DNA from: Candidatus Dasytiphilus stammeri
Lineage (GTDB): Bacteria; Pseudomonadota; Gammaproteobacteria; Enterobacterales; Enterobacteriaceae
Reading direction: 5' to 3'
Assembly: GCA_041942865.1 (NCBI GenBank)
Contig: CP145875.1
Span: 248,819 to 312,818 of the forward strand
Length of the DNA stretch: 64,000 nt
Made by a program: the position numbers and the translations under genes. This document shows, one piece after another, positions 58,350 through 59,558 of the stretch. Below the pieces are notes generated by a model. The model saw nothing but the letters and a program-made list of their open reading frames with translations. It ran no database searches and had not been told where the DNA came from. How positions within the stretch are numbered: position 1 is the first letter of the stretch; each line of letters opens with the position of its first letter.

Positions 58350-59558
58350 TTAATATTCAGCCCATTCATACTGATTATCATTATCTACTAAAATACCAAT
58401 TCTTTCACCCATCTTGATTCCTCTTTTAAGATAAATATCTTTACGTATAGAAAAATTAAAAATCGCAATATCTGTAAATAAAGTTTTCGCGTTCCGTACA
58501 ACAAAAAATATCTTGCTTCGAGTATCATATTCCATTGCAATTTGAAGAAGTTCATAACTTGGAAATTCAGTTTCAATAATTGTGCCAAATTCAGAGAAAT
58601 AATCAAATGGATAGATTACTTTTTTGATCGAAAAACTTTTTTTGATAAGATTATGAAACATAAAAGTTTCATTTTGAAATTGCATTAAATTTAATCCAGA
58701 TTCTTTTCCACAAAAAATTCCAAAAAAATATGGATGTTCTCGCGTATATATTTTATCAATTTTAAATTCGTAACTATACGTTTGATCAGAATAATACCCT
58801 TTAAATTCACAGAATGGACCTTCAATAATTTTCTTACCTTCTGTGTAACCATAAAGCACTATCTCGCTGGCGGTTGGTACTGCTGGGTAACGTTCATCTT
58901 TAAACAATTTTATCTCTGATTTGGATAATGCATTAGAAAACCCATAACTGTCAATGGTATCAGGAATTTTGCTAGCAGCACTAATGTAATTAACTAGAGG
59001 TCCACCATTAAAAAGACTAATAAAAGCTTTTTTTTGATTTTGTAAACACTTCTTAAGTATTCTAGATGCATCTGTTCTGGTATCAATAAAAATTGCAATA
59101 GTATTTTCGTTTTTAATCTCGCCACGATAAAAACCTAAATTATTTCGACCATGATCATCTTCGATGCAAAATATAAATGAAGTTAAATAACGACCAGCAT
59201 CTTTAGGTTGATACCTAAGAAATGGAAAATCTAATAGAGACCATGAAGATAATAACCAGTCAGGTCTGTGCTGATAATTGAGACGCTGAGCCGAAGATAA
59301 GGTATCTATCCTTTTACAGAATTCGGTAAGATAATTACATTCATTCATATCTAAAGCGTCTAAAATAATTAGACGCTTTAATAAATTATCAACATAAGGA
59401 ATCTTAGATTTACATAAAATTTTATTAAAAACCGTTATCGGATAATTTCTTAAATTTGGGTATTTATTATGCAAATATTGAGAAACTTCTAGCTCAGGTG
59501 ATAAAGGAATATCCACACTAATAACGTCTGCTTTATCAAGTATATGTCTCATATCCAT
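58350..59558 (-). CDS. UbiD-family (prFMN-type) decarboxylase homolog, short and divergent
   Basis: By-eye alignment to E. coli UbiD: NLGFYRGE vs NLGIYRQQ, IPDTIDSYGFSNAL vs VPDTLSEYAFAGLL, VPTASEIVLYGY vs VPASAEIVLEGY, EGPFCEFKGYY vs EGPYGDHTGYY. 402 aa, against about 490-500 aa for typical members. Confidence 0.65.
   Translation of the reverse strand: MDMRHILDKADVISVDIPLSPELEVSQYLHNKYPNLRNYPITVFNKILCKSKIPYVDNLLKRLIILDALDMNECNYLTEFCKRIDTLSSAQRLNYQHRPDWLLSSWSLLDFPFLRYQPKDAGRYLTSFIFCIEDDHGRNNLGFYRGEIKNENTIAIFIDTRTDASRILKKCLQNQKKAFISLFNGGPLVNYISAASKIPDTIDSYGFSNALSKSEIKLFKDERYPAVPTASEIVLYGYTEGKKIIEGPFCEFKGYYSDQTYSYEFKIDKIYTREHPYFFGIFCGKESGLNLMQFQNETFMFHNLIKKSFSIKKVIYPFDYFSEFGTIIETEFPSYELLQIAMEYDTRSKIFFVVRNAKTLFTDIAIFNFSIRKDIYLKRGIKMGERIGILVDNDNQYEWAEY

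Follow-up and report, generated by a model that had tools for sequence, protein, structure and literature searches.

We describe a short gene of the UbiD decarboxylase family in a 64,000-nucleotide stretch of the genome of Candidatus Dasytiphilus stammeri (C1:248819-312818; hereafter the window), which likely encodes a TubF-type member of the family that removes the C7 carboxylate in a 7-deazapurine nucleoside pathway of tubercidin type. The organism is a bacteriome symbiont of dasytine beetles, for which 20 genomes of 437-601 kb are reported (PMC11191362); the genome considered here is a single contig of 585,967 bp that is 98.5% complete. A preliminary description, made from the letters of the window, had offered two readings of the gene: an active C7-decarboxylase of a 7-carboxy-7-deazapurine nucleotide, or a protein that has lost its cofactor and either uses different chemistry or serves as a scaffold. 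The first is supported by the adjoining phosphoribosyltransferase (PRTase), GMP-reductase-like (GMPR) and QueE-FolE-QueD genes and by a clade shared with Streptomyces proteins. The second is disfavored by substitutions that extend across that clade, and by the flavin prenyltransferase UbiX, which is kept in 16/16 genomes of the genus and stands beside 5/40 related clusters.
58350..59558, minus strand: TubF-like short UbiD-family decarboxylase, 402 amino acids (aa), recognized by Pfam, alignments, an AlphaFold2 model and clade residues; N140, R145, E246 and E251 kept; T160 and S204 where canonical UbiDs carry the His and Glu metal ligands; clade-specific D159, R161, T162, D163 and K253; K349; conserved C-terminal tail YEWAEY.

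The open-reading-frame (ORF) list and its translation give an ATG-to-stop frame for this protein, and the Pfam UbiD model PF01977 matches residues 106-285 with an E-value of 6.2e-35 (120.7 bits, against a curated cut-off of 23.3). Within the translation lie the motifs NLGFYR, IPDTIDSYGF, VPTASEIVLYGY and EGPFCEFKGYY, so that the family assignment made earlier from such core motifs is borne out and the contrary outcome, no family hit, was not seen. Judged by its sequence, the protein is a real but divergent UbiD-family member. It is short, as the preliminary description had noted; the proposed loss of about 90 aa from the C-terminus, however, proves to be divided, since a phmmer alignment with E. 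coli UbiD shows about 34 residues fewer before residue 111 of the query and roughly 55-65 fewer after residue 286. Members of the TubF-like clade measure 395-423 aa, a range for which 402 aa is typical.

An AlphaFold2 monomer model, built on a 28-sequence clade alignment (predicted local distance difference test score, pLDDT, 93; predicted template modeling score, pTM, 0.90), allowed a fold-level comparison with UbiD and Fdc1. Foldseek query-normalized scores (TMq) are 0.86 for HmfF (6h6v), 0.84 for E. coli UbiD and 0.82-0.83 for Fdc1, and run from 0.82 to 0.86 across HmfF, UbiD, VdcC, AnInD and Fdc1, with 431-475 aligned columns; for HmfF, a chain of 446 residues, the alignment spans 441 columns and covers the whole two-domain UbiD fold. 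Because the model matches whole UbiD chains, the shortening appears to trim loops and termini without removing a domain. A homodimer prediction reaches an ipSAE of 0.70 against 0.01 for the best control, with at least 96% of contacts shared between runs and a partner pLDDT of at least 93. This mark is attained by 20/30 proteins solved as pairs and 1/23 solved as single chains, a calibration that is only rough here, given that a custom alignment was supplied and FMN (flavin mononucleotide) and Mn ligands were included; moreover, because UbiD oligomers are already solved, the result may reflect likeness only. The predicted interface comprises residues 317-402, with the tail (397-402) contacting loop 248-256 at the active site of the partner, and the model suggests that the decarboxylase probably acts as a dimer held together by its short C-terminal domain.

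The register of the active-site residues was checked by three independent alignments: phmmer against E. coli UbiD (2idb/5m1c), the 28-member clade profile against the PDB, and an hhalign comparison of this clade profile with one built from 40 canonical UbiDs (probability 100, E-value 2e-63, 352 columns). The first pairs NLGFYR, FIDTRTDA, IDSYGF and EGPFCEFKGYY of the decarboxylase with NLGIYR, WLSHRGGA, LSEYAF and EGPYGDHTGYY of E. coli UbiD, respectively; the second gives the same pairing with UbiD and matches D-S with the D-E of HmfF; and the third again places S204 on the conserved Glu of canonical UbiDs. All three thus uphold the His-to-Thr and Glu-to-Ser substitutions that had previously been aligned by eye, and the Glu of the GPFGE-type loop that had been called as retained is indeed present (E251), as is E246. 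For Aspergillus niger Fdc1, PMC4947166 gives N168, H191, E233 and K391 as Mn2+-binding residues and R173, E277 and E282 as cofactor-associated. Their equivalents in the symbiont enzyme are:
Fdc1 N168: N140, kept.
Fdc1 R173: R145, kept.
Fdc1 E277: E246, kept.
Fdc1 E282: E251, kept.
Fdc1 K391: K349, probably kept (inferred equivalence).
Fdc1 E233 (E. coli UbiD E241): S204, replaced.
Fdc1 H191: T160, or R161 in the register favored by a one-residue loop insertion, replaced.
Residues 159-163 contain no His, so the loss of this ligand holds in either register. The E(D)-R-E catalytic network is complete, with R145, E246 and E251 aligned to their Fdc1 counterparts, and Asn140 is the only retained member of the Asn/His/Glu set of Mn2+ side-chain ligands. 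Lys349 falls in a conserved column that holds Lys in 96/119 other UbiDs.

These substitutions are not peculiar to the symbiont. In an alignment of 155 sequences, 36 from the clade and 119 that represent the rest of the UbiD family (at least 370 aa), N140, R145, E246 and E251 are invariant in all 36 clade rows, as they are in the 28 aligned clade members, and three other positions set the clade apart:
Position 204 (canonical Glu): Glu in 109/119 other UbiDs; Ser 27, Asp 8 and Asn 1 in the clade (n = 36).
Position 159: Q, H, S and others in other UbiDs; Asp in 33/36 clade members.
Position 253: Thr in 71/119 other UbiDs; Lys in 36/36 clade members.
Likewise, 55 related loci from species genomes all carry a D-x-R-T-D motif, save one with D-x-R-T-H, and at the canonical Glu position show D-S in 32 cases and D-D in all 23 from Streptomyces. 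The His and Glu substitutions are a property of the whole clade and not local decay. Within the genus the decarboxylase is full length and stop-free in 16/16 genomes; D159, R161, T162, D163, D203, S204, E246, E251, K253 and K349 are invariant in the 16 sequences, N140 is invariant apart from one ambiguous X, and position 160 varies (T, R, P, A), indicating that it is not a constrained ligand. The ratio of nonsynonymous to synonymous substitution rates (dN/dS) is 0.18-0.37 over 10 pairs.

A quick IQ-TREE analysis (36 clade rows, 8 outgroup rows) separates the clade, including proteins of Streptomyces clusters, from other UbiDs with a Shimodaira-Hasegawa-like approximate likelihood ratio (SH-aLRT) support of 100, and places the symbiont clade (11 rows) as sister to a Pseudomonas group (4 rows), again with a support of 100. 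Since family-level relatives of the symbiont carry only canonical UbiDs of roughly 500 aa (E-value about 1e-13), this placement would fit one horizontal acquisition before the genus diversified. The sister group includes two assemblies of Pseudomonas entomophila, an insect-associated species, that hold the same six-gene cluster with a decarboxylase about 50% identical (L047, L048). A second TubF-like copy in Cystobacter fuscus (L079:10001-11199) runs out of frame after about residue 245 when translated straight through, with its best tblastn segment starting at 10663; it may be frameshifted, and a UbiX gene lies nearby.

UbiD-family enzymes need prenylated FMN (prFMN), which UbiX makes. The preliminary description had stated that the window encodes no UbiX; this is correct for the 64 kb, but a profile search of the full 585,967 bp found one, the genome's sole PF02441 match (C1:132878-133393), about 175 kb from the decarboxylase. 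The protein has 199 aa, is encoded between folC and nuoA (L001:1471-2070, C1 ~132.8-133.4 kb) and scores 282.8 bits against NCBIfam NF004685, whose cut-off is 188. Across the genus the relevant families are distributed as follows:
UbiX over cut-off: 16/16 genomes.
UbiA-family prenyltransferases: 0/16 genomes, with 14/14 control genomes positive.
PF01977: exactly one match, the cluster gene, in 16/16 genomes.
IspH: 16/16 genomes, 15 of them over cut-off.
In the supplementary KEGG table for the 20 symbionts, ubiX is listed in 20/20, and the table holds no entry with ubiquinone, ubiA, ubiE, ubiG, menA, ribF or ubiD (PMC11191362). The cluster enzyme is therefore the sole representative of UbiX's only known client family in a heavily reduced genome. 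Outside the genus, tblastn finds a UbiX homologue no more than 10 kb from 6/40 clusters. Five are confirmed by NCBIfam, in Sorangium, Sphingomonas, Cystobacter, a delta-proteobacterial metagenome-assembled genome (MAG) and a Methylocystaceae MAG, all with the D-S motif; the sixth, a 132-aa ORF in locus L055, is left as unconfirmed, since NCBIfam gave it no match at 1e-20. Taken together, the retention of UbiX and of a single UbiD gene in every genome, the lack of UbiA and the proximity of UbiX to five related clusters indicate that the decarboxylase most likely still uses prFMN made by UbiX. A role as the UbiD of ubiquinone synthesis was rejected on the same UbiA count. The NADH dehydrogenase genes nuoA and nuoB stand beside ubiX, yet no UbiA/MenA-family prenyltransferase is found in the 16 genomes.

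The decarboxylase gene is the sixth of seven in a tightly spaced minus-strand operon with the order QueE, FolE, QueD, GMP-reductase-like, PRTase, UbiD-like and HD phosphohydrolase. The other genes, and the regulator next to them, are:
62349..63038, minus strand: QueE-like radical SAM protein (7-carboxy-7-deazaguanine synthase), 229 aa; Pfam Radical_SAM.
61711..62334, minus strand: GTP cyclohydrolase I (FolE), 207 aa; the genome's only copy.
61159..61701, minus strand: QueD/PTPS-family 6-carboxytetrahydropterin synthase, 180 aa; Pfam PTPS 2.3e-31.
60027..61256, minus strand: IMPDH/GMP-reductase family protein without CBS domains, TubD-like; Pfam IMPDH 3e-117.
59567..60034, minus strand: type I phosphoribosyltransferase, TubE-like, 155 aa; Pfam Pribosyltran 1.1e-8.
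57740..58330, minus strand: HD_3-family phosphohydrolase, 196 aa; Pfam HD_3 4.8e-42; 19 nt downstream of the decarboxylase.
63334..63999, minus strand: LytTR-type response regulator; Pfam LytTR 2.1e-29 and Response_reg; continues beyond the end of the window.

Genes for 7-carboxy-7-deazaguanine (CDG) synthesis, a TubE-like PRTase and a TubD-like GMP reductase thus adjoin the decarboxylase, a TubF-type context that recurs well beyond the symbiont. Among 40 non-symbiont loci, GMPR occurs in 40/40 and QueE in 39/40, and a PRTase immediately precedes the UbiD-like gene in 39/40; in Pseudomonas mangiferae the six genes recur in unchanged order, with a NUDIX gene after them and a divergent MatE gene before them. 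Each of the six core genes shows at least 93% query coverage in 15/15 genus loci, in each of two locus sets. The smallest of the genomes examined has lost the malic enzyme gene and keeps only a remnant of the HD gene (L015:2407-2541 and L041), and in one draft genome the HD gene is split over two frames (L019:1919-2439 and L038); the six core genes are intact in both. In one genus genome the malic enzyme gene adjoining the cluster is broken over several frames (L023:8136-9017 and L044), a fragmentation that, on the reading frames, is ongoing gene decay beside an intact cluster.

Several of the neighboring proteins fall below subfamily cut-offs. The five best NCBIfam matches of the QueE-like protein are QueE models, all under cut-off; the QueD protein scores 84 bits against TIGR03367 QueD, slightly under 89.25; and the PRTase scores 72.5 bits against the xanthine PRTase model, below its 138-bit cut-off. 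The TTG start listed for the GMP-reductase homologue overlaps QueD by 98 nt (61159-61256). Because orthologue alignments begin at query residues 1-20 and a Pseudomonas ORF has 381 aa, the true start is probably an internal Met about 24 codons in, which would give about 385 aa; the listed length of TubD is also about 385 aa (PMC6112128). A separate guaB-like gene lies elsewhere in the genome, making the cluster IMPDH homologue an extra copy. The nearest non-symbiont homologues of the HD protein are Pseudomonas and Variovorax HD proteins (60-65% identity); an assignment as the enterobacterial yfbR orthologue was rejected at 21.7 bits against a 122-bit cut-off. The LytTR regulator, unusual in so small a genome, lies directly upstream of the operon in 14/15 genus loci and is treated here only as an adjacent gene. 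A scan of 57400-63400 returned 34 promoter-like sites against 32.2 expected and three terminator-like sites against 2.6. The sequencing runs listed comprise four of DNA, all from one study, and none of RNA.

These genes can be read against the scheme proposed for Streptomyces tubercidicus, in which TubE joins 7-carboxy-7-deazaguanine to PRPP (phosphoribosyl pyrophosphate), TubF decarboxylates the product, TubD acts as a reductive deaminase and the Nudix enzyme TubG removes phosphate (PMC6112128). On that model, FolE, QueD and QueE would turn GTP into 7-carboxy-7-deazaguanine, which the PRTase is predicted to couple with PRPP; the UbiD-like enzyme would then strip the C7 carboxylate from the nucleotide with prFMN supplied by the genome's UbiX; the GMP-reductase homologue would deaminate the product to a 7-deaza-IMP analogue; and PurA and PurB, where present, together with the HD phosphohydrolase, would complete a tubercidin-like nucleoside. 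Both PurA and PurB are found in this genome, leaving the tubercidin route open to it, and we infer that the HD protein is a nucleotide 5'-phosphatase in the place held by Nudix TubG in other clusters. Where folate synthesis survives, FolE probably supplies it as well. For the decarboxylation itself, prFMN-iminium chemistry could act on the pyrrole-type C7 carboxylate by analogy with HudA and AnInD, with the conserved Glu246-Arg145-Glu251 network providing acid/base catalysis and E251 as the presumed proton donor. Clade-specific K253, and perhaps R161, may bind the phosphate of the nucleotide or of the cofactor. Homologues of D-S type with adjacent PRTase and GMPR genes also occur in loci of the cyanobacteria Plectonema radiosum and Tolypothrix; species of these names appear among tubercidin producers in PMC6627551, for strains that differ from those sequenced.

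Several findings weigh against this assignment. The decarboxylase reaches 110.7 bits against the NCBIfam UbiD subfamily model TIGR00148, under its cut-off of 244.85; two Mn2+ ligands of Fdc1, H191 and E233, lack a counterpart; and 34/40 non-symbiont clusters have no UbiX within 10 kb. The FMN-synthesis gene ribF is not annotated in these symbionts, in the main text or in the KEGG table (PMC11191362), so that a prFMN supply would require imported FMN, and the step from dimethylallyl diphosphate (DMAPP) to dimethylallyl phosphate (DMAP) is unaccounted for. The HD gene is reduced to a 47-aa remnant in one of the 15 genus loci and frameshifted in another. The literature on tubercidin and UbiD and on prFMN and deazaguanine yielded no assay of a TubF-type enzyme, which leaves substrate and cofactor resting on context. 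Finally, purA and purB are entered as NA or without a KEGG orthology assignment for five isolates from Listrus hosts (PMC11191362 table), whose loci still carry the six core genes. Tubercidin itself may thus not be the product everywhere; given those missing entries, the product conserved across the genus may be of the 7-deaza-IMP/7-deazainosine stage, unless host enzymes finish the synthesis.

The replaced His and Glu ligands (the latter present in 109/119 other UbiDs and 0/36 clade members), the low subfamily score and the missing ribF annotation would also be expected of a decarboxylase that no longer binds prFMN and that acts by cofactor-independent or metal-only decarboxylation, or as a non-catalytic pathway scaffold. 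We consider this improbable, since UbiX is intact in 16/16 genomes of only 0.4-0.6 Mb that lack the UbiA family and a second UbiD, since it adjoins the five confirmed related clusters bearing the same substitutions, and since the Glu-Arg-Glu triad, N140 and K349 are invariant in a gene with the low dN/dS given above. Slightly less improbable, though still unlikely, is a prFMN decarboxylase with a different place in the pathway, its substrate being either 7-carboxy-7-deazaguanine as the free base, ahead of ribosylation, or the 7-carboxy-7-deaza-IMP analogue that would follow the reductase step. The order of reactions cannot be read from the arrangement of the genes, the lack of a TubF assay bears on this question too, and K253 together with R161 could bind a second carboxylate as readily as a phosphate. 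Streptomyces TubE, however, accepted 7-carboxy-7-deazaguanine and not 7-deazaguanine, a specificity that implies that decarboxylation follows ribosylation in that pathway; the parts of the account that bear on these steps are silent on whether it comes before or after the reductase (PMC6112128).

None of the PRTase, the GMP-reductase homologue and the UbiD enzyme is known to take part in making queuosine or folate, which counts against a cluster devoted to queuosine-type tRNA or DNA 7-deazaguanine modification or to folate alone. Such a role might be suggested by the KEGG table, which files queD, folE and queE under folate biosynthesis and lists tgt for 16/20 symbionts (PMC11191362), and by the status of the cluster FolE as the only GTP cyclohydrolase I in the genome. 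Here, however, tgt is divided into four segments that differ in frame and contain a TGA and a TAA stop (C1:547858-548937), an apparent pseudogene to judge from its reading frames, and is entered as NA in 4/20 of the published genomes (PMC11191362), whereas every locus examined holds an intact cluster; QueC does not rise above its cut-off in the genome (27 against 150 bits). The broken tgt, the lack of a QueC above cut-off and the extra IMPDH copy beside a guaB-like gene make this role highly improbable.

If the TubF-type decarboxylase does use prFMN, the cofactor would be held in a site that differs from that of textbook UbiDs. The invariant D-x-R-T-D loop and D203 are likely substitutes for the missing His and Glu ligands, and the prFMN phosphate would be held by a rebuilt site of D159, R161, D163, D203 and K349 in place of the His/Glu-Mn2+ bridge. 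We tentatively combine two proposals, with a joint probability that we set somewhat below even: that the TubF-like clade holds prFMN without this bridge, through the D159-x-R161-T162-D163 loop, D203 and K349, and that a nutritional beetle symbiont of 0.44-0.60 Mb retains a 7-deazapurine nucleoside pathway gained by horizontal transfer. At the phosphate, Arg161 could stand in for the metal, or the site could be an all-oxygen, Mg2+-type one. If true, the first proposal would add a new cofactor-binding mode to the UbiD family, and the second would mean that a pathway of tubercidin or 7-deazainosine type, with an otherwise orphan UbiX, has been kept since the origin of the genus as a second, undescribed symbiont function, probably protective or host-directed.

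TubF-type enzymes appear in family trees. Their entire clade lacks two textbook metal ligands, yet remains genetically tied to UbiX; how prFMN is held there now becomes a concrete, testable question, for which the reduced symbiont genome offers an unusually clean argument, in that UbiX survives with the decarboxylase as its only possible client. For the host association, a tubercidin-type operon in every genus genome examined points to a bioactive nucleoside made in the bacteriome. The published account of the symbiont focuses on tyrosine provisioning, and its main text, KEGG table and three supplementary files, the last covered by term search, were consulted; the main text makes no mention of deazapurine, tubercidin, queuosine, UbiD or ubiquinone (PMC11191362). 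Literature listings on tubercidin and symbionts and on deazapurines and endosymbionts showed no insect endosymbiont for which such a cluster is reported, and a 2026 preprint that mines 7-deazapurine clusters covers, in the part available, Actinomycetota only. The TubF type, to which the enzyme belongs, is known only from cluster annotation.

Among characterized systems, E. coli UbiD and A. niger Fdc1 share with the symbiont enzyme the NLGxYR motif, the Glu-Arg-Glu(Asp) network and the two-domain fold. They are about 95-105 aa longer, however, possess the His and Glu Mn2+ ligands (Fdc1 H191/E233), and carry Thr, as do 71/119 other UbiDs, after the second catalytic acid, where all 36 clade members have Lys. 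The chemistry nearest to removal of the C7 carboxylate from a pyrrolo[2,3-d]pyrimidine is the pyrrole-type ring decarboxylation described for the UbiD enzymes HudA/PA0254 (pyrrole-2-carboxylate) and AnInD (indole-3-carboxylate) (PMC7976604, PMC8988006); these are described as binding prFMN via Mn2+ and K+ or Na+ and as acting on free acids rather than nucleotides, and their profile E-values against the clade are only 1e-15 to 5e-32. The best solved relative is HmfF, the 2,5-furandicarboxylate decarboxylase of Pelotomaculum thermopropionicum (6h6v/6h6x; profile E-value 1e-43, residues 9-355), likewise a compact UbiD (448 aa) and one that acts on a five-membered heteroaromatic acid; identity is 17-18%, and HmfF has the loop His and a D-E pair where the symbiont protein has D-S.

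The closest system overall is TubF of S. tubercidicus, a UbiD-family protein of 422 aa for which decarboxylation of the TubE product is proposed and whose tubA-G set is matched by the symbiont operon (PMC6112128). Both proteins are short, and both have as neighbors a 6-carboxytetrahydropterin (CPH4) synthase, a radical SAM enzyme, a GTP cyclohydrolase I (GCH-I), a GMP reductase and a PRTase. We made the comparison with Streptomyces homologues from tubercidin-type clusters in place of the TubF sequence itself. These proteins, encoded in clusters of the same order, fall in the same clade (SH-aLRT 100%) and share D-x-R-T-D, EGPFGEFKGYY and D-x-R-x-K. The symbiont decarboxylase is, however, only 29-31% identical to them; at the canonical Glu position, 23/23 Streptomyces loci have Asp, and the symbiont and the other 32 loci have Ser; and the symbiont cluster ends in an HD phosphohydrolase where the tubercidin cluster has a Nudix enzyme.

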